A stretch of 64,000 nucleotides of DNA from Tubulanus polymorphus (taxonomy: Eukaryota; Animalia; Nemertea). The stretch covers positions 17,861,810 through 17,925,809 of the forward strand of contig NC_134031.1 of NCBI RefSeq assembly GCF_964204645.1, written 5' to 3'. Below are positions 1,518 through 37,548 of this stretch, piece by piece. The notes under the pieces were generated by a model. That model was not told where the DNA came from and made no database searches. It saw only the letters and a list, made by a program, of their open reading frames with translations. Positions within the stretch are counted from its first letter, which is position 1; each line of letters starts with the position of its first letter. A program made the position numbers and the translations under genes.

Positions 1518-4500
1518 ATGCAAGAAAAGAAGGCAAGTGATAAAATACTCGTAACGGTGTTTAGTAATAAATATGAGAGAAAAAGTGAAGGCATGGAATT
1601 TTCGGGTTATTTGGTTCGCGTTTAGTAATGTTCATCCTTTTACACGAAATAGACAAGATTTCGATATCAATCATTAATGCATGAATTTCATGTTTCCAAT
1701 CATCAGAGGATTCATTCTAAAGGGTATTACCACTGGCAATGAATGAGGTTCGAGAATAGCAATTTGAAACATTTTTTAAAATTTTTTAAAAGCGAGAAAT
1801 GATAAGTTATTGAAATCAGTTAATTATTCTCCTGAAAATATGTTTTTTAACGTTTATAGGCCTATCTCAGTAAACATTAGAGACAGTTGGCGGCCTTTTG
1901 AGTCGGAAAGAAAAATGTATTGGTTCTAACAATCAATCACCTCCGATCAAGTGTGAATTTATTTTCAACCCAAAGTTCACAGTGAGTAAAAAAAAAGAGA
2001 AACTTTATCCTCAAAAGCAGAAGATGAACTTTAGAGCGTATACTCCTGTGAACTTTTCAAGGTTTATGTCAGTAATGAGATCTGTTGACCGAGCTACGAC
2101 CCTGTAAACGTTTAAACTCGTAAAAACAAGGCAGTTATTGAGTCTTCCTGACCTTTTTTTAAATGGCATATGCGTTGTTTCTTTATGTTTCAGAACCTGA
2201 CGCGATGTTTGGTTCAGTGTACTTTTGCTGTCACGTTTGGATCGTCGTTACTGTTCGGCTACAATACGGCTGTGCTGAACACCCCAGCTGAGGTTCGTAC
2301 GTTGTCAACAGCTGTTTATGTTTCAATTTTGATAAACCGTCCATGTGAACGGTCTATGTGATCCGTTAACCCATTTCAGAGTGCACTGATACAACATGGC
2401 AACATCTGAAATTATGATTAGTTAGTTTATGTTCCTCGTGATATGAAAATGGAATTACTGGTGACCCAATAACAATTCTATGAAAACAAACATTGTATTC
2501 TGTGTACATGCCCTGCCATAATAAATCTATTGATGAATTCTGCGTATATCCCCGTTATAACAAATAATGTATTCTGCGTATATGCCCCACATTATCAAAA
2601 CTAAAAGCAACAGCTTTAATCATAGTAAAAATACATCTACATTTCAGACGATTCTTCGGTTTTATAATCAAACCTACGCGCAAAGATGGGGGGTGGCTCC
2701 GAATCCGAATCTACTCGAGCTGCTGTGGTCAGTGTCCGTCGCGGTGTACGTCGGCATCGGTCTGATCGGAGCGTTCTGTTCCGGTTTTGTCGCCGATAAA
2801 GTTGGAAGGTAAGGGAGGTCTGAAACCGAGGAGTGATTACCAGAGCGCAAAATACGATTCTGTTTTGAATAGGGGTCGATTTGAATAATGTGGGACTTTT
2901 TCCGGTCACTGTCTTCTACATCTGGTCATTCAAACTCTAGCACAGTGTTCCCACGACTCATTGATTCCTTAAAAACTCCTTTTAACAGATGCTTTCAAAT
3001 GTGCTTGAAAACTACACAAAACGCCCAAGACTTCTTCAATTCTGAGAAATGGGCAATTTGAAATTTACGGTAGACTGACGACTAATCGGCACATTTGGAA
3101 CTAGAATGTTTTTACCCCAATTTTACCCATTTTCGGAATTAGAATCCGAGTTTAGTAGTGTACAGTAAAGGATGAATTAATGGTTTAGCAAATAGACAGC
3201 ACTGTAATTGGAAAATGGTGCAGAAGCTTCCTCTAAATATTCTCCTTAAAAACTCATCAAGAAATGACTGATCTGTAGGGACCGTGCAGCATCTTTTGTA
3301 ATATCATATCCTCAAGCTAGATCGCTTTTATTATTCTTCTAGGAAAAGAGGTCTAATCCTGAATCACATCATTATGTTCGTCGGTGCTTTATTGGAAGGG
3401 TTAACGAAAGTAGGTCATGCGCCTGAATTATTAATAGTCGGTCGAATGTTTGTGGGCTTTAATTGCGGTAAGTGTTGACAATAACTTGACCCTTGTGCGT
3501 ACTATAAGTGTAATAAATAATCAATATTATTGAATAGTTGTAAGCGTAGTAACCTAGATAGCAAGTAAACAAACGTAAATAGTGTCCAGTCTACTACTCA
3601 TTGTCCACTACACGTTTTTATGCTTTTAGTGTCTACTAGAAATATCTAGTTCAATTTTGAGGTCGAAAAGTCGATTTCAATTTACCTGTGGCTTTTTTGT
3701 CATTCATAATCAAATAAATAGCTCTTGGTGTCAACATGTTTTTTTATGTCTGGCGGTCTTCAACGATCCCCACAAATAGCCTACTTTTTATTGAAATACA
3801 TAAATTCATTTGAATACCCAGCGATGAATGAATGTCTTTTTCAGTCTACCTTCTATACTGCTTTTTTCTATGAAAATGAATGAAAGTTCATTTGGTTTTT
3901 TACGCCGTTTTTTTACAGGATTAACCGCTGGCCTGGCTTCCCTTTATTTGGCCGAAATTGCTCCACAGAAATTACGAGGAGCTATTGCCTCCTGTCATCA
4001 GCTTTTATGTACGATCGGCATCCTGTTAGCTCAAGTACTAGGAATTGAAGAGTTATTGGGTGAGAATTTGAAAATGATTTGGATAGAAAAATTTACCAAT
4101 TCTTTCGGGAAGAAGAAAATGTATTCTATACATGGGCTGTTTTTTTTAGGTAATGAAAAACTGTGGCCGTTGTTGTTAGCTTTCACGGGATTTCCCGCAT
4201 TGATAGCTGTATTCTTGCTTCCATTCTGCCCGGAGAGTCCACGATTTTTACTTCTAAAAAAACACAACGAAGAAGATGCGAGAGATGGTAGGCTGTGTTT
4301 GTAATGGAATGAATTATCTAATGAAAAAAAATCAAGCTATAATTGGTCTATTCATATCTCTTTTATTATTCTTCCAGCCCTGAGAAGGTTGAGAAACTCC
4401 ACAGATATAAATAACGAAATCGAAGAAATGAAACAAGAGGCGAAAGAAGCGCAAGCGTCGGGCACTTTTACTTGTTGTCAGATATTTCAGCAGCGGGATC

Positions 4501-5900
4501 TGCGAATGCCTCTGCTGATTGCAGTCGTGCTGCAAGTAGCGCAGCAATGGTCGGGAATTAACGCCGTAAGTACGATTTTAACAATTTCATATTATCAGTA
4601 CCCTCTAATTCCGTGAAATAGAATCGTTCATTTTCGTTTCGTCGTAGGTGTTCTTCTACTCCGAGGTCATATTCAAAGATGCCGGCCTTACAGTGGAAGC
4701 AGTGCAATACGCGATCCTGGGAACGGGTATCATTAACGTTTTAACAACTGTGGTCGCTGTACGTATTACAACAAAGTATTTGTATTGTGTGTCCGTTGAT
4801 GAAAATTTACAATGTGTTTTAAGCACAGCTTGTTATTAAGCAAATAATACTACCGTTTCATTTCGACCTTGGCCCAGTTTCACAAAAAAACTCACATTTT
4901 TTGTGTGATCGTTATTGGTCACCTCATGTTTTCAGTGAGGACAACAATTTATACTGAACTGTTTTTGTATTTTTCTCTCATGTAGCTCCCTCTCGTTGAG
5001 AAACTCGGACGACGTATGCTGTTGATCGGCCCAATGATAATGATGGCGATTTCTTTAGTAATTCTAATCATCTCCATCAATTTACAGGTAAAAACACATT
5101 TCAGCCCTTCAATAAGCGACGTTTCTCTGAGTTATATCTGATATTTCGAACCATAGTTTCTGCATTATTTAATATATCTAATCATTTGCTCTATTTTTTC
5201 ATTTTTACGCAGGCACAAGCGACTTGGTTGTCGTATTTGAGTATAGTTTGTATACTGGTCTATGTGATCGGATTTGCCGTCGGGCTCGGACCTCTGCCAG
5301 GTTTCGTCGTGGCCGAATTGTTCCGGCAAGAACCTCGACCTGTGGCGATGAGTATAGCGCAGTGCATCAACTGGTCGTGTAATTTCATTCTTGCTCTATG
5401 CTTTAGATTTGTTCAGGTAAATACATTCACCATTCACTCGAGAGACAAAAATGTTATTCAGAGTCCCTACAACTCCTTAAAATCTCCTCGTCTTCAGAAT
5501 GGAAAATGCTTGGAACTCCTTTAATTTGACCAATTTGCCAAAAACTCCTTTAAATCTCCTTATAAACTCTTTATATCCTGGATCTGTAGGGAGGGACCCT
5601 GTAATTAAAAAATTTGACATCTCTATGATGGTTTTAATCGATCTATTTTAGGCTCGATGCAAAGAATACACGTTCATCATTTTCATCATGATCATTATCG
5701 GTAGCGTGACATTCATTTTCTTCTTCGTGCCGGAAACGAAAAATCGGTCGTTCGACGAAATCGCGCACGAGATCGGAAAACCGCTCGGACATCGCTACAA
5801 GCAGCGAATAGCGAAAGACGATCCTGAGAACAACGCGACGAACGTCGATTCGCATGTGATGCTACTAAAAAATCGCTCGGGCAAAGAATGCAAAGTGTGA
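1518..5900 (+). CDS. Facilitated hexose transporter, SLC2A/GLUT family (MFS sugar porter), ~516 aa, 11 coding exons
   Basis: GT-AG exons in consistent phase: 1518-1550, 2194-2292, 2648-2808, 3343-3467, 3919-4059, 4150-4287, 4378-4565, 4648-4758, 4986-5087, 5213-5416, 5652-5900. Sugar-porter motifs FGYNTAVLN, DKVGRK, YLAEIAPQKLRG, PESPRFL, QQWSGINAVFFY, VEKLGRR, VPETKNRSFDEI. Exon 1 is the least certain. Confidence 0.93.
2943..3286. mobile_element. Non-autonomous DNA transposon family A (TIR consensus CAGGGTCCCTAC), copy in GLUT intron
   Basis: Begins CAGTGTTCCCAC and ends GATCTGTAGGGACCGTG. Internal AAAACTCCTT motifs are shared with copies at 5459-5601, ~21090-21264, ~22920-23335 and 56382-56686. 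Flanks TAGCA/CAGCA. Confidence 0.7.
5459..5601. mobile_element. Family A MITE, internally deleted copy
   Basis: CAGAGTCCCTAC ... GGGACCCTG ends; flanks TTATT/TAATT. Confidence 0.65.
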
Positions 5901-9570: not shown

Positions 9571-10020
9571 TGACATTATTATTTATGATGAAAATATATA
9601 ATATACATAATATGTACGGTGGGATTTTTTATTACAATAGCTTTAGATAGATTTTCAGAATACCCCTTCTTCCTCATTCGTATATAAATCCGTTAGGACT
9701 ATCGGAATTATCTATTAAGTAGATTCGATGACGTCCATCCGATGTGTTCCTCAGTTTTCCAGTCCGGGGAGAATTTCTTAAGATTCGCCATTCAACTGAT
9801 TAAATCGAGTTTTATAATCATACACTCTAGAGAAATGACCATAACGAAAGACGCCTTTTTCTTTCGTGTGAATTCGGATTCCGTTTTATCATTCATTTCT
9901 TTTTACAGGATCTCAAATAACATATCACTACGCAGGATTGAGTAGTTTTTATAATACGAAACTAGATGTCGCACGCGTCTGGGGAGGTGTCGCCTTCATG
10001 ACGACTGACTAGAGCACGTC

Positions 10021-11642
10021 ATGCATTCCAAATATCATTCGGGATTCCGATTGATTTGCGTAGTAGTGTTTCTCTACTATTCATTTTTATTAACATGGCA
10101 AGGATTAGTAGTTTTCATGTTCCTTTTAGGTACGTGTCCAAGCTTAAGACGGGTGGGGTGAGATCGTGGAGTCGGTATGCTCTGTCGGAATTTCGGCTGG
10201 GCCCTGTCTGTCATGTCAAATATAAATTCGAAATGAATATATTCATTATTTACAGCATCTGTATATATTTCCCGGACAGAAAGTACAAATACTCGAAAAG
10301 ACAAAAAGAATCCGTTACGTCAGAATATTACCGGCGAAGTTACTCTATTGGACGCCACGAGGCGGCGAATCGATGCGGAAATCGCCAGATTTGTGACATA
10401 CGATGGCAAATCTGCGAACAGTTTGTCGCGTTTTGACGAAATAAAATTCAACTCTGAATGCATTTTTGCAGCAAAAGCCCGACTTTGGGGCAGCTCTGAT
10501 TGGCTTTCAGAGTTACCGTTAGAAGAAAATATTCACAGGTAAATCTACGTACGACGCCGGATCAAGGCCGGTGGCCGCGCGGGAAATATGATTCACCTTC
10601 TTTCGCGTGACGTAGGCCTTTGTTAATTTGGTATATATATATATTTTTTTTCTTATTCAGATTATTGCCAACATTTTTGTTATTCGTACTAAGCTGTCCG
10701 GAGCTTGGTTTGGATGGATTTCTAGTTGAGTTACCCGGTTCTTACTGTTGCGATATCCAGGTATAGAAACAGTGTTTTTTTAAAACCACAGCTGGGCCTG
10801 GTGCAAAGTTCTTATGACCCCAAAAATGTTATGGTCAGGTCGCATTATGAATTTTTGGTAATATATATACTATTTGAGGGATCATTTACGCCTGTTTTGA
10901 TGAATTTAGCCAGTTTTGTATGGGAGTGAAGTAGAACTACAACACTCTTTCTGGGGCAACTATACCGACCTATAGGTTCTTTGGGAGAGGGGGATGAAAT
11001 GAACTTTGTTTAAGCAGTTGATATATTATATATCAACTGCATGTAGGCAGATTTAGAAATATGGTGGATCCTTATAGATTCTTATATTTGGTGGAAATTC
11101 TTATCAGTATAAAGTATGATCATGGGATGCTCTGCATCACGTTTGAACAAGATTATCATTTGTGTTGGTTTTCATATTGTTTTCAGATATTTTCGGACAC
11201 TGTACGACGTGTTTTGAAAGTGATGTCCGACGAGGACCCACGCGGAGTTCGCTGCATGGACAAATCCTACATCGGGGGTCGGGGTTGGGTTTTCGAGTTT
11301 AACAAAATGACATTTTTCGTGACGACATTTGCTCCGTTTTATCCGGAGACGCACTCGCGATATTCGTTCGGGTGTAGAGATCACGGGTACATCCTTTTTC
11401 AACCAGAACTGTCTTTTGCTCGCAAAGATCTGCCGACCTACACGCCTGTTACTAATTGGAATAATCCTCGCACCATCCGTGATCGTATTCGCGTGGCGTT
11501 CCGAGACGCCGGTCGTCCTTATCCGACACACGAGGTTCCCTTAGTGGAAGAAATAGTTAGACCTGTGGATTCTTGTGATCAGATTAAATGGTGGAATCAT
11601 TTTCCCCCTGACCAGTTCTCTGGCCTCTCAGACACTTATTGA
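10021..11642 (+). CDS. N-terminally membrane-anchored YqcI/YcgG-like protein (putative heme-thiolate guanidine/arginine N-hydroxylase fold), ~307 aa, 4 exons
   Basis: Exons 10021-10129, 10280-10538, 10661-10760, 11187-11642 join in frame. Hydrophobic N-terminus LICVVVFLYYSFLLTWQGLVVFMFLL, then ECIFA, WVFEFNKMTFFVTTFAPFY-x4-SRY, ILFQPELSF and IRDRIR, in the order remembered for YqcI/YcgG proteins. Gene model is solid; family call is moderate. Confidence 0.7.
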
Positions 11643-11936
11643 CACCGGGTCAATCATATAGTTTTTTTATTGTAGCCTATACATTTTTATCATAATCTTG
11701 AATAAATAAGATGGAAAAACGAAATACAGCGCGAGCACTTCCTTTTTATCTCCTCGTGAATCTGGACCGCGTAGGCCAACCGCAGTTAACAAAAAGATAA
11801 ATATTGGTAATGTTCAGCTGATTCGATCATGTTTTATCTCACCAGGTATCTGAAGCGTTACGCATAATATTGTGTTAAAAATTATGGTCCATTTAATTAG
11901 TGAACAGTCTTTTACTGAGTAATTTTCTAAAGGCCA

Positions 11937-12138
11937 CAACGGCATAATGCGACATCGGGTCATATATTGACCGTTAAGTGCTGCCCCATGATTTGTCATT
12001 AGCGGCGAACATGTGAACTCACAATATTCTTACTGCGGCGCGCGAGTAATATCCTAGTTCGTGTATTCGCCGTCAACGTTATGTATAGGGGCAGCACTTG
12101 ACGGTTGATATGGTGCAAGATTCGACGTTACGCCGTTG
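11937..12138 (+). ncRNA. Candidate structured RNA / long rod-like hairpin upstream of Ro60
   Basis: Three co-axial stems: 11937-11949/12126-12138, 11964-11987/12088-12111, 12002-12019/12056-12073. Non-Watson-Crick positions are 8 G.U versus 2 A.C on the + strand. Confidence 0.45.
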
Positions 12139-12449
12139 ATACGATAGTTCCAGCAGTTGCGTAACGTTTGGTAACGCTGTAGTTTGTTGACCAGTTGACA
12201 AACCACACGTAAGTGTAGAACTTGAAGTGACGAAAAATTTGTTGCAAGATTAGTGGGAAGGCCTCTCTGAGTCTCTCTATCTTATCTAACGATTTTGTGA
12301 GGCTAACGCCAACGTTGGTTAACACCACGGAATTGACATTTAGATTTAGATAATGTAAGTTTTGTCACTTTAAAACAGCCAGAGTTGATGTAACTGACAA
12401 TTTTCTTTCTTATATTTCACTTTTGTCTTATCTGAAGTCAATCGTGAAT

Positions 12450-14156
12450 ATGGAAGGTGGTATCAATAATGTAGCAGCTGAGATGGATTTGGATCGGCCG
12501 AGTGGAGATCAAATACCGCAAAGTCAACCGATTGATGCGACGCAAGTCGTAAATCTAGCCGGAGGTTTCGTTTGGCAGATCGACGGAATATCGCGCCTTC
12601 GTCGTTTCATATGTCTCGGATGCGAGGGCGGGACGTACTACGCGTCCCAGAAAGAACTGACGATCGAGAATATCCAATCGATTAAGAAATTAGTTTCCGG
12701 CGGACGAGGTCTCGACGTCGTACGCGAGATCGAACAGTTCAGCCTCGAGGGCAGAACGGCGAAACAGGATAATATATTATTCGTTTTAGCGTACTGCGCT
12801 CGGCAAACGGAAGATCGAGATACGAAAATCGCCGCGTACGAAGCGTTGCCGAAAATATGTCGCATACCGACGCATTTGTTCGCGTTCGTCGGCTTCGCGG
12901 AGAAGCTGAGTAAATCGGGCGAAGGTAAAGAGACTACGGGTTGGGGTCGAGCCCACCGCCGGGCTATCGCCAACTGGTATACGAGATACGCGAATGCTCC
13001 CGCAAAGTTAGCGATGCACGTTACGAAATACAAAAATCGAAATGGTTGGACGCATTTCGATTTGTTCCGGTTATCCCACGTGAAGACCGATCGCGCCGAA
13101 CTGGGCGCTATTTTCAGATACGTCGTTAAGGGTTTAGGAGCGGCTAAAGAGCAATTCCTGAAAGAGCCGGCCGCAGCAACGCCGGCGCTTCTAGAAATAT
13201 TCAAATTCCTGCAAGCCGTCGAAGATACGAAAACTGTCGACGCGGAAAACGTCGACAAAATCGTCAGTTTGATCGAGGAAAATCATCTCGTGCGCGAGCA
13301 TATTCCGACCCAGTTCTTGAAGTCGATAGAAGTTTGGCGCGTATTGTTGAGAGATATGCCGATGACGGCTTTGATGAGAAATCTGGCGAAAATGACGAGC
13401 ATCGGGCTGCTGAAACCCGGAGCTGAAGAGACGGCGCAAGTCGTCCTGAAACTTAGCGATGACGATAAGATAAAAGAAGCGCGTATCCATCCGTTTAATG
13501 TATTGAACGCTTTGTTGACGTATCGTAGTTGTAAAGGCGCGAAGGGAAGTCTGAAGTGGCAAGCGTGCCCCGAAATCGAGCAGGCGCTCGACGATATGTT
13601 CTACAAAGCGTTTAAATTCGTCGAGCCGACCGGCAAACGGTTTTTACTCGCGGTCGACGTCAGCGGTTCGATGACGGTTTGTAACGTGATCGGATCGGCG
13701 GCGATGACGTCGTATCAGGCGGCGGCTGCTATGATGATGACGACGCTCCGCACCGAAAGCAACTGCGAAGTCTGCGCGTTCGATACGACTCTGACGCCGA
13801 TGAAAGTGAAACCCGAATTTAAACTACCCGAGACGATGCTCGCGTTCGAAGGTTTCCTGTGCGGAAATACGGATTGCGCGGCGCCGATGTTGTACGCGCT
13901 GGAACACAAGAAAGAAGTCGACGTTTTCGTCATTTATACCGATAATGATACCTGGTACGGCGACATTCATCCGGCCGCCGCGTTACGCAATTACCGTAAA
14001 GAAATGGGAATCTACGACGCGAAGTTGATCGTTACGGCATTCTCAGCTTCCGAATTCTCGATCGCCGATCCCGAGGATCCGGGAATGCTCGATATCGCCG
14101 GATTTGATTCCGGGGCACCGGAAACAATGAGGCAATTCGTTCTCGGTAATATTTAG
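12450..14156 (+). CDS. RO60: Ro60 (60 kDa SS-A/Ro, TROVE + vWA domains), 568 aa, single coding exon
   Basis: N-terminal NLAGGFVW..RLRRFICLGCEGGTYY, CRIPTHLF, GWGRAHRRAI, KYKNRNGWTHFDLFRLSH, MPMTALMRNL, ARIHPF, intact MIDAS DVSGSM, TDC, YTDNDT, DPGMLDIAGFD. First ATG at 12450. Probable 5'UTR intron (donor 12209, acceptor ~12437). Confidence 0.97.
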   Translation: MEGGINNVAAEMDLDRPSGDQIPQSQPIDATQVVNLAGGFVWQIDGISRLRRFICLGCEGGTYYASQKELTIENIQSIKKLVSGGRGLDVVREIEQFSLEGRTAKQDNILFVLAYCARQTEDRDTKIAAYEALPKICRIPTHLFAFVGFAEKLSKSGEGKETTGWGRAHRRAIANWYTRYANAPAKLAMHVTKYKNRNGWTHFDLFRLSHVKTDRAELGAIFRYVVKGLGAAKEQFLKEPAAATPALLEIFKFLQAVEDTKTVDAENVDKIVSLIEENHLVREHIPTQFLKSIEVWRVLLRDMPMTALMRNLAKMTSIGLLKPGAEETAQVVLKLSDDDKIKEARIHPFNVLNALLTYRSCKGAKGSLKWQACPEIEQALDDMFYKAFKFVEPTGKRFLLAVDVSGSMTVCNVIGSAAMTSYQAAAAMMMTTLRTESNCEVCAFDTTLTPMKVKPEFKLPETMLAFEGFLCGNTDCAAPMLYALEHKKEVDVFVIYTDNDTWYGDIHPAAALRNYRKEMGIYDAKLIVTAFSASEFSIADPEDPGMLDIAGFDSGAPETMRQFVLGNI

Positions 14157-14247
14157 AACTCTTGGATCGGGAATTATCTAGATATAATTAAAATAATCTT
14201 GAAAATGATAAACTTTGCTATGGGACAGTGCTATTTGCTTTAGGCTT

Positions 14248-29181: not shown

Positions 29182-32100
29182 TTAGAATTTAGATATGTTT
29201 GTTCTTTGGTGCTGATCAACCGCGGCGGCTTTCTTCTTTCTTTTTCGACTGACTATCAGCGCCGAAAATGTGAACAAGATCGGATTTAAAGCCGAGTTTA
29301 TCGGCAAAACGATTATAGCCATAAAAGCCGCTACATCGGGTAATACATAAACGCCGCTCATCGATACGAATTTCGTCAAAATGATCGGAACCCAACAAAA
29401 GAAATCGGTGCCTAAAATCAGCACGAGTTTCTTAACGAGAGTCATTTCGTTCGATTTCGACGCTGCGTCGCACGAATTCCCGACCGATTTCGACGATTTT
29501 TTGTATATGCAGTAAATGATGGCGTACGACGTTCCTATGAACAGAAACGAAAGCAGATTGAAAATCAACAATAGCAGAGAGAATTCCATGGCTACCTCGG
29601 CGCCGTGGGTGATCGTGAACGGCAGGCAAACGCTGTTGCGACCGTAGTAATTGCGGAAATAGCCGATGTAATCATCGAAAACAGGCAGAACCGCCAGTAA
29701 AAACCAGAATATCCAACCGAAGATGACCGCGAGTATAGAGCCTTTGTAAGAGATATGGAGGTTTTTGTGAAATGGAAAAGCTATGCACAGAACTCGATCC
29801 ACGGTCAACAGCACCATGGTGTATACAGACATCTGACTGGACAGTAATGACACCGCCCCTGTTAGCTTACAAACCAAACTCGATCTCCATCCCACCGACT
29901 CGTTTATGTAGTCCCCGCGTGTTAGGGTGTCTTTGACGGCGATGACCATCAGATAAACACCCATTAATATGTCAGAAATGGCCAGTATCAAAACTAGAAG
30001 ATTAGTGATGCTAGTATTTCTTCTTTTGCTATCGTCTCTACACCTGCAGACGATAACGAGGGCGTTTCCGACTAGAGCGCTGATACCTAGAACCCAAACG
30101 GCGACCTGTAAAAATCTCGAATCGAGAAGATTTTTACAGGACGAAAATCCGTCGCCTTGTTGAGTACACCAATCCGAATTATCGATCGCAAAGCAGCAGA
30201 TATTGAAATAATCAGCGTAAAGCTCATCGAGAGAAACGTCCTTGAACGCCCCTTTACTGATTAAGAACTTGGGACCTGATTTCAGCCGCAGGTCAAGAAT
30301 TTTTAAATTCGACAACCTTTCGAACGGACGTTTTGGTTGAATTTGCTGGAGACGTTTGTTGTCGCTGATATTGAGGTATATTAAACTAGTCAGGTCGTAG
30401 AACGCTCTATGCTGAATGTCAGATATCTGATTATCCGATAGATGAAGGTATCTTAATCGCCGTAGTCCTGCAAAGTAATGAGAACGCACGTATCGTAACA
30501 CATTTCTACTTAAATCCAAATCGAAAAGGTTAATCAACTCTACAAATGAACCCTCGGGAATATCGCTGATACTGTTGATACTTAGATCTAGCCTGCCTAA
30601 TTTATCCATTTTACTAAACGTATTTATTTTTATTGTGGTGATGTTGTTCTTTTTAAGAATGAGACCTCGGGCGCGTCTGGTTACGTTGGTTAAGATAATG
30701 TGGTCGGCTCCGGTGCAGTCGACAATGTGCCCTCGGCAAAAACACGGAGGCGTACAATGATCACAGTACTGTTCGTCATCGCCCGAACGACCGCAGTCGC
30801 GTACACCATCGCATACACGCTCTTGAGTGACACATACTCCCTCGTGAGGACACATGAACAGCCCTGGACACAGCGGCAGCGGTTCGCAGTCGAGCTCATC
30901 CTCCCCGTCCATACAGTCCCACTTACCATCGCAGACGACATAATAAGGAATACAAAACGAGTTCGGACATTTGAACAAACCCGGACAAGTGAATTCTTTA
31001 CAGTTTTTCAAATGGAACAGTTTCGGGCAGCCAGGGTCTCTTTTGTCATATATACATATTCGATCCCGTGGTATACAATTCGACCGGTCCGGCTGGCATC
31101 TGACTTCGTTTGCATTCGGACAAAAAGTGGCGTTGTTCCACGTTTCGTCGTCTCCATAAATCGGGCAATCGAAAAGTCCGTCGCTGACTTTTTCGGAGGC
31201 GATGCACCGGCCCGATTGACATCGGAATCCGGGGCAATTCTCCGCGCAGGCGTTATCGCTTTCGTCGCTGCGATCGATACAATCGAAAACAGAATCGCAA
31301 ACTCGATCTAACGCTATGCAATCACGATTTTTGCATTTCCATTCGTTTTTTGAGTCGCAATCGCGAAACGTACAGCTCTGGTCACCGTAGCCGCAATATC
31401 GATTCAATGAGGCGACGCGAACCTTGTTTTCGTCGATGAATGAATATTTTTTCCATTTTTCGCAGTCGATCTCGTCTGATCCGTCGCGACAATTGCGTTC
31501 ACCGTCGCACACGTAAGAATCAGGAATGCACGTTCTATCCCTGCACGTAAACTGATTCATTCCGCATTTTGAACTCTTATACATCACGTCAGTGCGACAC
31601 AAGACGTGATAAGCTGGTAACGTCTTAGAAAGCCAGCGGAATCTCGTCGATTTTGTAGGATTATCGACATGTAACACCAGTCTATCTTCAAAGTTTCGTC
31701 GATGTGTAGGTATAGTCACCAAATCAAACCTAAAATTATCAGTGTATGATATCAATTTCCATTTGTCGCCTGGTGGTAGATAGAGCCATAAGTTCATCAG
31801 TGAGGTTACGCTATCTGGCCATTTTCCTAGGAATGCTATTCTACCACCGATTGCTCTGCATTTTGATGACAATTGCGCGGAACTCAAATATGATCGACTC
31901 GTAACAAGTCTCGCGCATGTTCCATTACGAGGTATGGTTTTATTGATATCGGTGCCTGGTGGAATACAATCAGTGTCCGGACGAACGAACGTCCATCCCG
32001 GTCTACAACCAGTGAAGTTACCCTCGAGACGTTTAAGCGGGCGCGGTTTTGAATAACTGTAAGAAGCGCTAGTTTTGCAGACGTAGCTGACATTCTTCAT

Positions 32101-35100
32101 CCAGTCAGAGCACGGTACTTTGAACCAGTTCGTCCGCGAATACAGTCTCGAAACGGCCATTGCGACGCATCTAGCGCTGTAGGAACCATCGGGCTGGTCG
32201 ACGGTCGAGTTGATAAAGTCTGGCTTATTTTCACCGAAGCTGACATGGTTCACCGATGGCTTGGCCTCGTACCATTCGTTAAAAACGTAAGGGCGACCGT
32301 CCAACCATTGGAAATCATTGATCTATGTAAATGGAAATTTGATTAAATTGATAAAAGTATCAGCATAGTCTGGGCTAGAAATGTTGATAGCAACATTAGG
32401 GCTTATTTTCATTACACTAGTCCATCGCACACGACCTGGAAAACAGGGTAAATATACTAACACAGAAACAAGGAGACAATGTTTAATCTCAGAAACTACA
32501 GCCGCGATCACACTAGATGATTATGCCGGGCCAAACTGGCACGGATCGGGCCGGCGTCATATTTGGCCCGTGCCTATATTCAAAGAGTGTGCACACTCAT
32601 AAACCACTCACTCGATACTAAATAATGCTTTAATAAAGCAAAAGTGAGTCACTTATGGAACCAGATGTAATTCACGCGCAATAGTTTGACATGTGATGAA
32701 ATACGGCTCGGGCCAGGTCCGACTCCGACGTTTCGGGTCGGGGTAAACGAGCACCGGTCCATTTGGCACCCGTGTGAACAAAAATACTCGCATGATAGTG
32801 GCTTATGTTTCTCGTAAAAAGTTCAGTAAAGGGCAACGCTCGGAAACATGATTCTGTTTCCTGTTTCCGTGTGTCCCTGCGTCGATCTTGGACACTGGGT
32901 TTAATTCTGCAAGGTTTCTTTTATCTCCATCGTGTAAGATTTCTAATTTTTGAAATTCTTATTCATGTTGTTACCTGATATTTATCGTGTAATCCTATAA
33001 ACACGATAGGACTTCGTTTAGTGAAACCGTATTCAGGTCTACCGAACGTTTTCCACATTTCTGGCCACCAAAACGAGCGCCACATTTTCATCAAATAATG
33101 CATCTCATTACCGTCCATAATGCTGACTAACGTCGCTTCTGCGTCCTGGCATTTCTGAGCCGCTACATCCCAAGTCATTGACTGATGGAACGTGTTCATG
33201 GCCGACTAAAAAATAATTTCACGAATCCGATTGTTAAGCTAAAATGTTAGCCAATGACTCATCGAAATCAGTTTATACCAACGAATGCAATGATGTACTT
33301 GTAGATCATCTGCAAGTTTAGCAGACGTACATGTTGAAATAATAATGGGATGGCATGAGCCCCAGGATTTTTATTTTTTGGGAATTTGTTTCTAGGAATA
33401 GAGTCAAACCCCAGAACATTTTTGAAAATTTCGTGCAAGCAGGCGCGTTCTGGTGCAATCTGAGGCCGATAGGTAGACTGGTTACCGTTTACTTTGCATG
33501 TATCGATTTTATTTTGCTAATTTAGCAAATGCAAACCATGAACCGACGTTCGTCGACGTTTGAAAATTCAAGAAATGGGGTTCGAACAAACTACCGAACC
33601 CCCCTAGGGACGCCCTTCATGGGCACATTATTGTCAATTGAGTCAGCTCTCGGGTTATAGCTGGTCGTAAAAACTGATCCAGCTATCTTCCTATAGCACT
33701 GTTGAATTTCCTGGCTTTTTATTGATCTGCTATATTCAATTTAGGAGCGAACTTACCACATATAGATAACACGAACTTCTCCAGTAGAAAAACCCCGATG
33801 GACATACTGTCGAATTGGCGACTTGCGTCAATGGTTTTCTTTCGTTTGTGATTATTTTGTATTTGAATTGCAGACCGGTATTATTGGATTCGATTTGAAA
33901 TCCGGCTCGAGTCGTTCGAATAACGAGTTCTTGTTGCTCTTGGTATCGTCGTACGTAATCGTTGTTTATGACCTTGGAAAGCGGAAACGATTCGCTAATC
34001 CAGCACAGGTGATCGGTAAATACCGTTTGATTCCAATCGAAGTCCCATGAAACAGCTATTTCGTAAAAGTCCATCGTTGCGGGGACTTCCGAACACCGCG
34101 ATAGCGGTCGGTATTCTATTCTATACCAGATAGCTGAAGATGCAAACCAACCGGGTCGGAAATACTGTATGCTTGTGTGTTCATGAATATCGTTCGGGAG
34201 TCCGCATTCAGATGATTGTAAATTGATTGTATGATTCGTCTGGACCAGATCGTCACACTTTTTGAGGTCGACAATTAATGCTGGGCGATCGTGGGATTCT
34301 TTGCAATAAATGCGCCTTAATTCCAAAAGATACTGACTACCGTACAACAATTTATCCAACTCCTTGATTACGAGTCTATACGCACAACGGGGATTTTTAC
34401 GTAGTATTTGCGTGAAATATATCTGTTCTATGTCACCGACATTTATGGTAGTATTTCCTGGTTCAAGGATGAGCAGAGATCTGTTACCAAAAGGTAACAG
34501 AATCGTCTTCGTATTCGAGTACGTTGGTCTTATAACCCAACCTCTAAATGCCGATACGTTAACGCGGTCGATTAGTTCACTTGCGTTCGGTTTATTTTTC
34601 TCGTCCAGGTAGAACCAGATCATGTTTACACAATCTGACGTTACGGAAACATTCGGGGAGTTTCTCATCCCGATTTGGCCGAAAAACCGATAGAGATAAT
34701 CCGATTTGAAATAGCACGGCTCCAAGACGAATCCGTCGTTTTGGAAATTTCTATCCGCGTGTTCGTATGATAGTTTGAGAAGATTTCCCTCTTTACGGGG
34801 TGAATATTTCATCATTGTGTAAAATGGCGTGGATTCTATTGTCAGGTGATAAACCGATGAAAGCTGAAAGTGCGCATCACCGCTGATTTCTGAACACATA
34901 TAAGATAAAGAGAATTGTCCGTATTTTGTTGAGTTGTCAGGCGTCAAGGTTAGCGTTATTAAATGGTAAAATCGATCGGATTTCGTTGTTATATTAGTGG
35001 TCGATACCGAAACAACTCGCCCGATCGGACACAATATCAAAAATGCGTAAGTGACGAAGCCAAACGGGAGTCGAGAATTCTCCAATGAATATGTATTTTT

Positions 35101-35973
35101 GACGTAGGTCTTTGATTCCGTCAAAGTCTGGAAATTGTAGTACATCGTTTTCGAGCTATTTCGCGCGCTTATTTCGAAGCTACAGTTAAAACCCGGTCGG
35201 GAAAAGCTCTCGTCCGTCGCGAAAAGCAACGTCATATCGACATCCCGAGCTGACTGCTTTAAATATCCGCTCAATCGGCCACAGAATTTACCGTGTTCTT
35301 TCTTGCCCGTGTATACGGTCAAAGAATCGGCGGCACAGCCTTCCGACTGTTCCAGATCAAAGTCAAGACAGTAAAATACGATATCGAAAGTCGTAAGTCG
35401 ACTGCCAATTGTATATTTGGCGCTGATTAAAGTCGGATAGGTGTAATAAGCGTAAAACGGTGTATTTACGAAAACGAACGTTTCACGGATCATATATTCC
35501 GATAATTCATAATCCCGCAAAGAAAACGAACATTTGTAACGATTAGCGAATAGAACAACCGTTCCTGGCGCTTCTTTGTCTCTCGGTAAACTCAAACCGA
35601 ACTCTTCGTCGTAGCCTTTTTCTAAGCAAAATCGTTTTCTCTTCCCGTCCAATTCGACTAATATTTTCGTGGGTCGAGTAACTCTAACGCGTCCGTTATT
35701 AGTGGTTATATCGACGATTTCGAGTGTATAATTACAGTTTATACACCCGTCACTGCTCAGGTAAGTCAGTTCTAGGTTTGTTTCGCCGTAGCGCACGGTG
35801 TAAACGACATGTTTCTTGGAGTTATTACTCCAAGGTCGATCCAAGCGAAGAATTCCGTTCTCAGTGGGTTCAACGTGCACAAAGTTCACCGACGTCGAGT
35901 TCGCACTTAAAGTTCGTATCATCCTCACCATCGTCATCATTATCATTAAGATTTGCACGAATGACAAATACAT
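29182..35973 (-). CDS. GRL101-like LDLa/LRR-containing GPCR with extra N-terminal CUB and C-type lectin domains, ~1860 aa, 3 exons
   Basis: Exons 35973-33757, 33205-32975 and 32322-29182, all phase 0. The CTL domain is continuous across both introns (CPSGFFYWRSSCY|..TWDVAAQKC..FIGLHD..|..FQWLDGRP..FNEW). Signal peptide, CUB (FDLEQSEGCAADSL..KFCG..FATDES...GF), ~6 LDLa repeats, LRRs, hinge CC..C..FSSCKNLL, then 7TM (GNALVI, LAISDILMG, DRVLCIAFP, TDFFCWVP, PINSALNP). Confidence 0.9.
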
Positions 35974-37548
35974 ATTTTTTTTAAAATTTATCCGTATTAC
36001 CAGAAAATATAAGTTCATCCATAGAAGAAAGCTCTTTTAGATATATTACTTCGCGATTTTTGACGATTTGTCTTGAGGACTTAACAAAGACTTGTTGAAA
36101 AACGAATCCCTTTATGGTAACAATGCCAGCGGTGAAAATGCCAAGTGGATATAAGCAGAGAACTTGATAATTCACTAACATTGGACATGATATTTCTAAT
36201 TACATGATATTACTATTTCTATCTACACTAAATGATTTACAGGCATTGCTTATCCTTTATGATGATGGATATTGTGTCCGATTACAGTTAATAAATGAGA
36301 CAATTTCGAATAATGTAAAATCTATAATCAAATTGATAGTGTTTGACGCGCTTGTCTGTTGTAATCAATCGAATCAAACGTTTTGTTGAAGTTCTTTTTT
36401 ATTGTTACGAAAAATATCAATTTACTAGATTTTACATATATAGAAAGACCATCAGCTTGCTACCGTTAATTAGATTAAATCAAAACAATTTTAGTTCTGC
36501 TATAAATATATATGGTACCTATATTTTCCGATATACTGATACCAATCTATCATCAATTCTCTGCATGTCTCCTACTGTTATTTTTGCCTCTGGTATTTCT
36601 TACCTTCCGTTATTGTTATCGCGTAGTTCGAAAAAACCAAAAAACCAGCCCTCGATACAACCTGATCGTATTCGATTTAATTGATGATATGAAATAAATT
36701 GTTATTGAATCATCGATATTCGGCAAAACAAAACACAAAAACCCGCGAAGATTGACACCTGTTTTATGCGTCGGACAGCAGCGAAACTTATGTGTCCAGA
36801 ACAAAATACATCCGCTGATCTACTGAGACTTTACTGAAAACGAATTCATCTATAATAGATATTTGTTTAAGAGAACGATCTGTTAATTGAAAAATATCAA
36901 CAACGTTTTATGTGTGCATATATCGGAAGATAAAAGCTGCGAGCGTTATTTACTTTTAAATGCGATGTGAAAAAAGACGTACGTTTCATTTCGATGGTGC
37001 GCGGTCTGCGCGGTTCGTGTCCTCCGAGGCATGTAGCCAGAAATCGGTATCGCCTTCAGAATAATGACTTCTGAAAGAGGCCATTAAAACTAGATGGAAA
37101 TCAAACATAAACTATAAGCTAAACATAATTTCGACAAACGCTGAATAGAAATTTACGAAGCGAAAAACTACGTAAATCGAAATTTGAAATTTACATTTAT
37201 ATTTGAAATTAATATTTGCATCCGTAGATGATGTTGAATTCATCGGGAATTGAGGTGCATCGAAACCTCGTTTATTCAGTTGGATTTTGAAATTCGGTCG
37301 CATTTATTTCGGAAGAGACCAACAAATATGACACAAACTCTGCTGGTGTGCGGACATCTAACTACGAACTTACTCGTGGAATATTGTTTGAATGAACCGA
37401 AAACTTCCAATTATGTACTTTGATACAAACAATTCTCTAAATTCCGCCGATAACTCAACGATATCTGTACTACGATTACCGAACACCCTGCTTCGTTCTC
37501 GGCGGGTGTGGCCGATAGTAAGGGATTCTAAGGGGTGTAACTAAAACT

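Follow-up and report, generated by a model that had tools for sequence, protein, structure and literature searches.

What does a short spliced gene of the nemertean Tubulanus polymorphus, lying at positions 10021 to 11642 of a 64,000-nt stretch of genomic DNA (here, the window), encode, and on which substrate might its product act? A sequence-only reading took the product for a membrane-anchored animal homologue of the bacterial YqcI/YcgG heme enzymes (Pfam PF08892), with an arginine-type guanidine as the substrate and a route to nitric oxide independent of nitric oxide synthase (NOS) as a possible outcome. According to the accessible part of the AglA study (PMC12866846), this family occurs across all domains and reaches eukaryotes, and its six characterized members are all bacterial and all act on guanidines; PF08892 is recorded in Magnaporthe in the available text of PMC4583678, and some mollusc proteins in databases already carry the tag. 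In a literature search that took in few subscription papers, neither animal members nor membrane-anchored forms turned up as the subject of a study, and the MazG-fused clade described below was likewise absent. We describe the protein as a predicted membrane-anchored relative of the bacterial thiolate-heme N-hydroxylases and weigh what it may oxygenate.

Gene structure and splice forms

The frame is open over four spliced exons separated by three GT-AG introns of 150, 122, and 426 nt, and the 307-aa product is letter-identical to RefSeq XP_074655561.1 ("uncharacterized protein LOC141909093 isoform X2"; P0001 in our alignments); the exons, length, and Cys codon position first proposed are exact. 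One contig of run X1 (1,406 nt, window positions 9589 to 11668; contig X1) joins all four exons and lacks all three introns. On the plus strand, splicing and contig X1 define coding exon 1 (10021 to 10129, residues 1 to 36), exon 2 (10256 to 10538, starting at 10280 in the 307-aa isoform), exon 3 (10661 to 10760), and coding exon 4 (11187 to 11642, residues 157 to 307 plus the stop). Upstream of the coding frame, the contig extends the untranslated portion of exon 1 back to 9589 (9589 to 10020); this portion contains six ATGs, none of which enters the main frame, and a stop codon stands in frame just 5' of the main ATG. Intron 1 has two forms. In contig X1 it spans 10130 to 10255 (126 nt), with an acceptor 24 nt further upstream than in the 307-aa model, and the resulting 8 additional residues give a 315-aa product with the Cys at position 105, which matches the length of RefSeq isoform X1; the splice evidence for this form is a single contig from one study, and the contigs are silent on transcript ends and level. 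The long form (10130 to 10279, 150 nt), leading to the 307-aa isoform, is that of the RefSeq model and is absent from the contigs examined. Contig X1 also carries C for T at 10349, which changes Leu to Ser in the linker. Residue numbers below follow the 307-aa isoform.

A Pfam scan placed animal-type genes for a sugar transporter, Ro60, and a kinesin in the window. The Ro60/TROVE gene (11720 to 14244, plus strand) has an intronless coding frame at 12450 to 14156 and a 5' UTR intron near 12194 to 12420, and its contig begins about 50 nt past the end of the YqcI contig. Its 5' UTR includes an element of about 45 to 55 nt (12055 to 12108) that recurs in dozens of contigs of this species and is probably an interspersed repeat. 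Further along, a 1,046-aa intronless frame on the minus strand (29182 to 32322) combines five LDLa repeats, leucine-rich repeats, and a rhodopsin-type 7TM domain, an architecture which we take to be GRL101-type; directly upstream on the same strand lies a 766-aa single-frame CUB-domain protein (33736 to 36036), and the two frames may be one gene.

Fold and family assignment

The 307-aa protein has a single Pfam hit, PF08892, whose 20.4 bits (E = 4.9e-4) fall short of the family cut-off of 27; this profile is matched by 45 of 46 aligned relatives at E values up to 1 (best, 6.1e-11), and six of the seven bacterial bridge loci or near-copies scanned exceed the cut-off, at 44 to 48 bits. The AlphaFold2 model has a mean pLDDT of 88.5. 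AglA structures fill the first five Foldseek places (E = 0.016 to 0.073), and in a VIA search of 48,161 chains AglA was matched with a Z score of 16.4 (rmsd of 3.2 over 202 residues, residues 76 to 293 of the model on AglA 3 to 245), with a runner-up at 5.6. A feature search of the ESM Atlas returned YqcI/YcgG clusters exclusively (best, 0.91). The structure comparison came out as the sequence-only reading had anticipated, and its family assignment stands on this AglA-only fold match together with the residues below and the bacterial bridge, the profile alone being weak. The bridge is needed for the sequence link to AglA, because PDB sequence searches with exon 4 or with a eukaryote-only alignment did not retrieve AglA; a profile that combines eukaryotic and bacterial relatives aligns with AglA over residues 112 to 202 (E about 0.05). 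Alignment A3 and one canonical sequence gave no significant match in hhalign (probability, 1.3), the NCBIfam GntA equivalog NF041366 gave no hit at an E value of 1e-5 with either isoform (canonical control L074, 253.6 bits), and the cytochrome P450 profile PF00067 gave none at E values up to 10.

AglA, the argolaphos N-hydroxylase of Streptomyces monomycini (PDB 9UB3 and related entries), binds heme through Cys44 plus R166, K196, and R200, and its substrate site is shaped by F152, Q177, R179, and F182, as described in the consulted sections of PMC12866846; the same sections report that the K196R mutant gains free-arginine activity and that the reductase is encoded elsewhere. Counting along our profile alignment reproduces the published AglA numbering, in which F152, R166, Q177, R179, F182, K196, and R200 correspond to F200, R214, Q228, E230, F233, R254, and R258. 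Phe200 (11316 to 11318) occupies the substrate-gate position of Phe152, and Arg214 (11358 to 11360) that of the heme propionate residue Arg166. The segment Q228-P-E230-L-S-F233 (11400 to 11417), a signature of the clade, aligns with Q177-V-R179-R-V-F182, and R254-D-R-I-R258 (11478 to 11492) aligns with K196-R-R-V-R200 at the heme propionates. Since the AglA residues map onto this set, the heme site appears intact on paper, with one gate residue reversed in charge (R179 to E230). The predicted axial thiolate, Cys97 (TGC, 10459 to 10461), lies in the C-x-F-A motif (ECIFA) and was assigned from sequence and conservation; the Cys of the bridge proteins falls at Pfam position 12 and aligns with that of the canonical rows, which were themselves chosen by this motif, and from the aligned range we infer that Cys97 corresponds to AglA Cys44. 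Cys97 very probably binds heme as a thiolate, with R214, R254, and R258 holding the propionates by analogy with AglA.

Within the available portions of the sources, the N-terminal Cys is absolutely conserved in the family (PMC2922099), ChmN is a thiolate-heme protein whose C47A variant loses heme, DcsA is heme-bound, with its activity then unconfirmed (bioRxiv 10.1101/2024.01.24.577118), and GntA takes a cyclic guanidine (PMC12371840). Besides the sandwich fold, the Tubulanus protein shares with AglA the N-terminal Cys and equivalents of R166, K196, R200, F152, Q177, and F182, but it is only 13 to 16% identical, carries Glu230 for Arg179, an N-terminal membrane hairpin, and a longer loop after F233, and is eukaryotic and spliced. 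GntA, ChmN, DcsA, AmbT, Mhr24, and the canonical GntA-like/DUF1989 clade (NF041366) belong to the same PF08892 superfamily and have the conserved Cys; their clade has an N-L-H-x-Q-F pocket and a DUF1989 neighbor, whereas the Tubulanus clade has Q-P-E-x-S-F and its bacterial sisters adjoin nucleotide enzymes.

Conserved core and predicted membrane anchor

W190, F200, R214, Q228, P229, and F233 are present in 106 of 107 homologues, and R254 and R258 in all 106 homologues covering those positions; C97 is kept in 85 of the 95 rows that span its column (8 gaps, 2 other letters). The wider clade comprises 491 clusters at 50% identity (E below 1e-30), and residue and domain counts were made on its 150 best representatives, 78 with a long loop and 72 with a short one. 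Here the axial-position Cys occurs in 78/78 long-loop and 71/72 short-loop rows (149/150), the distal-pocket residues F200, Q228, and F233 are almost invariant, and R214, R254, and R258 are found in 78, 76, and 77 of the 78 long-loop rows, respectively, while Glu230 is found in 63 and replaced in 15. The motif series picked out from the sequence (W-x-F-x-F, SRY, FQP, and the IR.RIR region) is conserved far above chance, and so is the Cys. The long loop (residues 234 to 257; 11418 to 11489) includes a eukaryote-type D/Y-T-x-x-T-x-W-x-x-P insert that bacterial-type relatives lack in the alignment. Residue 241 is Tyr in T. polymorphus and Asp in 102 of 107 homologues.

The N-terminal hydrophobic anchor, proposed at about 25 residues, measures about 28 (residues 9 to 36; 10045 to 10128; best 19-residue Kyte-Doolittle mean, 1.88); it is modeled as a hairpin of two helices (3 to 23 and 26 to 39) and is followed by a basic stretch. 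Scored as a 19-residue window that reaches 1.5 or more and lies before the Cys, such a segment occurs in 30 of the 36 named animal relatives, the other 6 entries being partial, fused, or short models or having no segment, and in 46 of the 78 long-loop proteins. In a eukaryotic sub-branch (12/78 long-loop representatives), an N-terminal ARF-family GTPase domain replaces the hairpin (rows P0028, P0070, P0086, P0089, P0093, L026, L030, L031, and L039 bear the domain); it is possibly a GTP-switched membrane tether. The hairpin is predicted from the model to anchor the protein in a membrane, and because basic residues come after the anchor, the catalytic domain is predicted to be cytosolic. Microsomal cytochrome P450s combine a Cys-ligated heme, an N-terminal anchor with following basic residues, and an external reductase, all of which we propose for the Tubulanus protein; unlike them, it has an unrelated fold and sequence, and its candidate ligand Cys lies near the N terminus of the catalytic domain.

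Distribution and phylogeny

Named hits come from a sponge (Sycon), two hemichordates, Branchiostoma, Macrostomum, a rotifer, Lingula, two nemerteans, and many molluscs, with 44 to 52% identity among the animal copies; further relatives, many from protists, are found in the MMETSP and EukProt collections of non-animal eukaryotes. Vertebrates, arthropods, cnidarians, and annelids are missing from the named hits of this sampled search. The gene is a spliced animal gene, as first read, of a family that is not animal specific, and a role as a nemertean toxin was dropped because the distribution is too broad. The tree (FastTree, 134 rows, SH supports) omits P0006, P0027, P0032, P0041, P0066, P0080, P0083, P0087, and P0107 (partial, fused, mis-modeled, or near-duplicate), proteins no longer than 230 aa, rows whose core could not be parsed (L008 among them), and duplicate loci; its canonical clade is drawn without the ChmN and DcsA sequences. 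All named animals fall into one 43-row branch (SH 97), in which Tubulanus pairs with Lineus (SH 96), and this branch is nested in 78 eukaryote-type rows (SH 95), unnamed rows being called eukaryotic from source plus loop type. Twenty-nine bacterial-type rows lie outside, and P0116, which is labeled eukaryotic, is placed among bacterial rows. A very long branch (SH 100) splits off the 26 canonical rows, which have F, L, A/S, NLH, and N where the eukaryote-type and bacterial sister rows share W190, F204, Y208, QPE, and Y268.

The animal copies, from sponge to hemichordates, group together as a single branch within a broader eukaryote-type one, so they look like old inheritance with patchy loss; recent transfer into animals is not favored. 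That the nearest characterized relatives are bacterial might suggest contamination or a recent transfer into the worm, but the spliced contig X1, the Ro60 and kinesin neighbors, and the grouping with Lineus among the other animals reduce this to a negligible probability, as the introns had already indicated.

Bacterial relatives and their gene neighborhoods

A scan of GTDB genomes gave seven loci with 29 to 36% identity over residues 76 to 292; metagenomes gave 48 (part of them eukaryotic), viral contigs one, and plasmids one. A plasmid match, H2 (E = 0.08), was rejected as not a homologue. The bacterial sister loci keep C-x-F/Y, W190, F204, Y208, QPE-x-SF, and WW and have no 241 to 250 insert. 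An N-terminal MazG-like domain is fused in 38 of the 72 short-loop representatives, the other 34 having no such fusion; as a tandem copy, it aligns with nucleotide pyrophosphohydrolases of the YpjD/MazG type whose structures are solved (E = 1.3e-14), and the acidic metal motif E-E-x-x-E...E-x-x-D is kept in 33 of 39 MazG-like domains. HD and HAD domain fusions also occur. These MazG(YpjD)-YqcI fusions (Anoxybacillus, Trinickia, uncultured lineages, and one IMG/VR contig) are the nearest non-eukaryotic relatives and have the same pocket signature, but unlike the Tubulanus protein they are mostly soluble, with a short loop, often a tandem YpjD, and sometimes an HD or HAD domain.

A nucleotide or nucleoside enzyme is fused or near at 14 of 22 non-redundant bacterial loci (L002/3, L004, L006, L011/12, L016/17, L019, L020/21, L022, L024, L032, L034, L035, L036, and L058), counting MazG fusions, HD/YfbR 5'-nucleotidase-like proteins, PNP/MTAN nucleosidases or phosphorylases, cytidine or dCTP deaminases, and uridine or adenylate kinases. 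At two more (L007 and L049) a PfkB kinase is the only candidate, and at the remaining six (L005/14, L008, L013, L025, L027/28, and L054) no nucleotide gene was found in the scan; the tally excludes L042, L043, duplicates, and eukaryote-type contigs. Methyltransferases stand near seven bacterial loci, five with TPMT hits, and exporters at two. DUF1989 adjoins the canonical PF08892 gene at 22 of 26 control loci drawn from 702 genomes, and no DUF1989 or peptide-ligase partner was found among the sister-clade neighbors scanned; the neighboring ORFs were chosen by hand (36 scanned), with flanks of 4 kb versus 1.5 kb for the canonical controls. One Kitasatospora locus has a P450 plus a class II tRNA-synthetase-like gene. 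No reductase gene appeared among the bacterial neighbors scanned. PADLOC gave no hit for the Tubulanus protein or the YqcI fusions, and neighboring nucleosidase and methyltransferase genes match its defense profiles via generic domains only.

Several loci have unusual arrangements. L011 encodes a triple fusion of tandem YpjD, YqcI, and HD nucleotidase (3374 to 5374) followed by a TPMT-like methyltransferase, and in the IMG/VR contig L058 the MazG-YqcI gene shares a single run (97 to 2917) with those for an EamA exporter and a uridine kinase. The cassette of Trinickia fusca (L006, 3488 to 7661) consists of MazG-YqcI, HD, methyltransferase, and MFS genes. In L016 (409 to 2535), L021 (713 to 2713), and L036 (1822 to 3702), a PNP/MTAN nucleosidase with an extra N-terminal domain of about 350 residues lies upstream of the YqcI gene; the N-terminal 380 residues of the neighboring nucleosidase fusion gave no Pfam or NCBIfam hit. 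In Anoxybacillus flavithermus (L002, 3200 to 3560), the start of the MazG-YqcI frame is apparently shifted at an A-run just 5' of the annotated start.

Substrate and mechanism

We tentatively favor a membrane-tethered heme N-oxygenase acting on a nucleobase- or nucleoside-type substrate rather than on free arginine, and give this reading a probability of about 0.42. It is suggested by the company that the heme enzyme keeps in the bacterial cassettes: a MazG/YpjD pyrophosphohydrolase, an HD/HAD phosphatase, a nucleosidase, a methyltransferase, and an exporter. The chemical step would be short, since guanine contains a cyclic guanidine, the type of group taken by GntA, and adenine and cytosine contain amidines. 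In such a cassette, MazG would convert an NTP to the NMP, an HD/HAD enzyme the NMP to the nucleoside, and the nucleosidase the nucleoside to the base, with N-hydroxylation, O-methylation, and export in addition; alternatively, the same enzymes might guard the host nucleotide pool, and the flanking nucleosidase could merely recycle S-adenosylhomocysteine for the methyltransferase. Eukaryotic members no longer carry the MazG fusion, have acquired an anchor and an insert beside the pocket, and retain only 29 to 36% identity to the bacterial proteins, so their substrate may have changed.

O2-dependent N-oxygenation with electrons from a separate reductase is probable. An Fe(IV)=O species of the Cys97-ligated heme would oxygenate the substrate nitrogen, and on an endomembrane the electrons would come, by analogy, from P450 reductase or cytochrome b5. 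The nitrogen would be an amidine or cyclic-guanidine N of cytosine, adenine, or guanine, as base, nucleoside, or nucleotide, which is the weakest step of the proposal. A broader and distinctly doubtful extension is that in sponges, spiralians, hemichordates, and many protists an overlooked internal-membrane thiolate-heme oxygenase, alongside P450s and NOS, N-hydroxylates nucleobases for defense or signaling, giving N4-hydroxycytidine or N6-hydroxyadenine derivatives as candidate products, and that the bacterial sisters do likewise with MazG/HD as protection; viperin, which produces an antiviral nucleotide, would be a parallel.

The original proposal, that the enzyme acts on an open-chain guanidine such as arginine, agmatine, a phosphagen precursor, or a guanidino toxin and converts it to an N-hydroxyguanidine without NOS, now appears somewhat unlikely. 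Every characterized member hydroxylates a guanidine, which speaks for arginine and counts against a nucleobase, as does Arg254 at the AglA K196 position, where K196R accepts free arginine; the equivalents of F152, Q177, and F182 are retained, and Glu230, which could bind a guanidinium, might pair with a cationic group. This residue is not decisive, because 25 of 26 canonical rows have His at the AglA Arg179 position and Glu230 itself varies. Against arginine stand the long branch to the canonical clade with its different pocket, the missing GntA equivalog hit, the nucleotide-enzyme fusions and neighbors, and, one Kitasatospora locus apart, the lack of DUF1989 or peptide-ligase genes among the sister neighbors scanned. 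The sponge-to-protist spread speaks against a toxin role in nemerteans, and molluscs already possess NOS; on the same evidence of clade, pocket, and context, a NOS-independent route to nitric oxide is no longer the leading interpretation.

It is improbable that the heme domain senses gas or redox state and regulates a partner without hydroxylating a substrate: the MazG, HD, and HAD fusions in bacteria and the ARF-family GTPases could be outputs, and the scanned neighbors include no reductase, but AglA likewise depends on a reductase encoded elsewhere, the distal pocket (F200, Q228, and F233) is almost invariant, the cassettes contain methyltransferases and exporters, and most animal copies lack an output domain. 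Nor do we give much weight to a membrane-bound monooxygenase or peroxygenase whose substrate is novel and neither guanidine nor nucleobase, such as a lipid amine, a xenobiotic, or a dietary toxin. The anchor, the eukaryote-specific insert beside the pocket, and patchy retention in aquatic lineages would suit it, but the named hits mostly give one or two copies per species, a number that, together with the 44 to 52% identity among animals, fits a fixed endogenous substrate better than detoxification.

The favored nucleobase or nucleoside substrate could be put to the test in Escherichia coli, as the bacterial cassettes comprise three to five genes. If the Tubulanus protein binds heme and is active, invertebrates would have a further class of cysteine-heme oxygenase, and with it an ancient metabolite.
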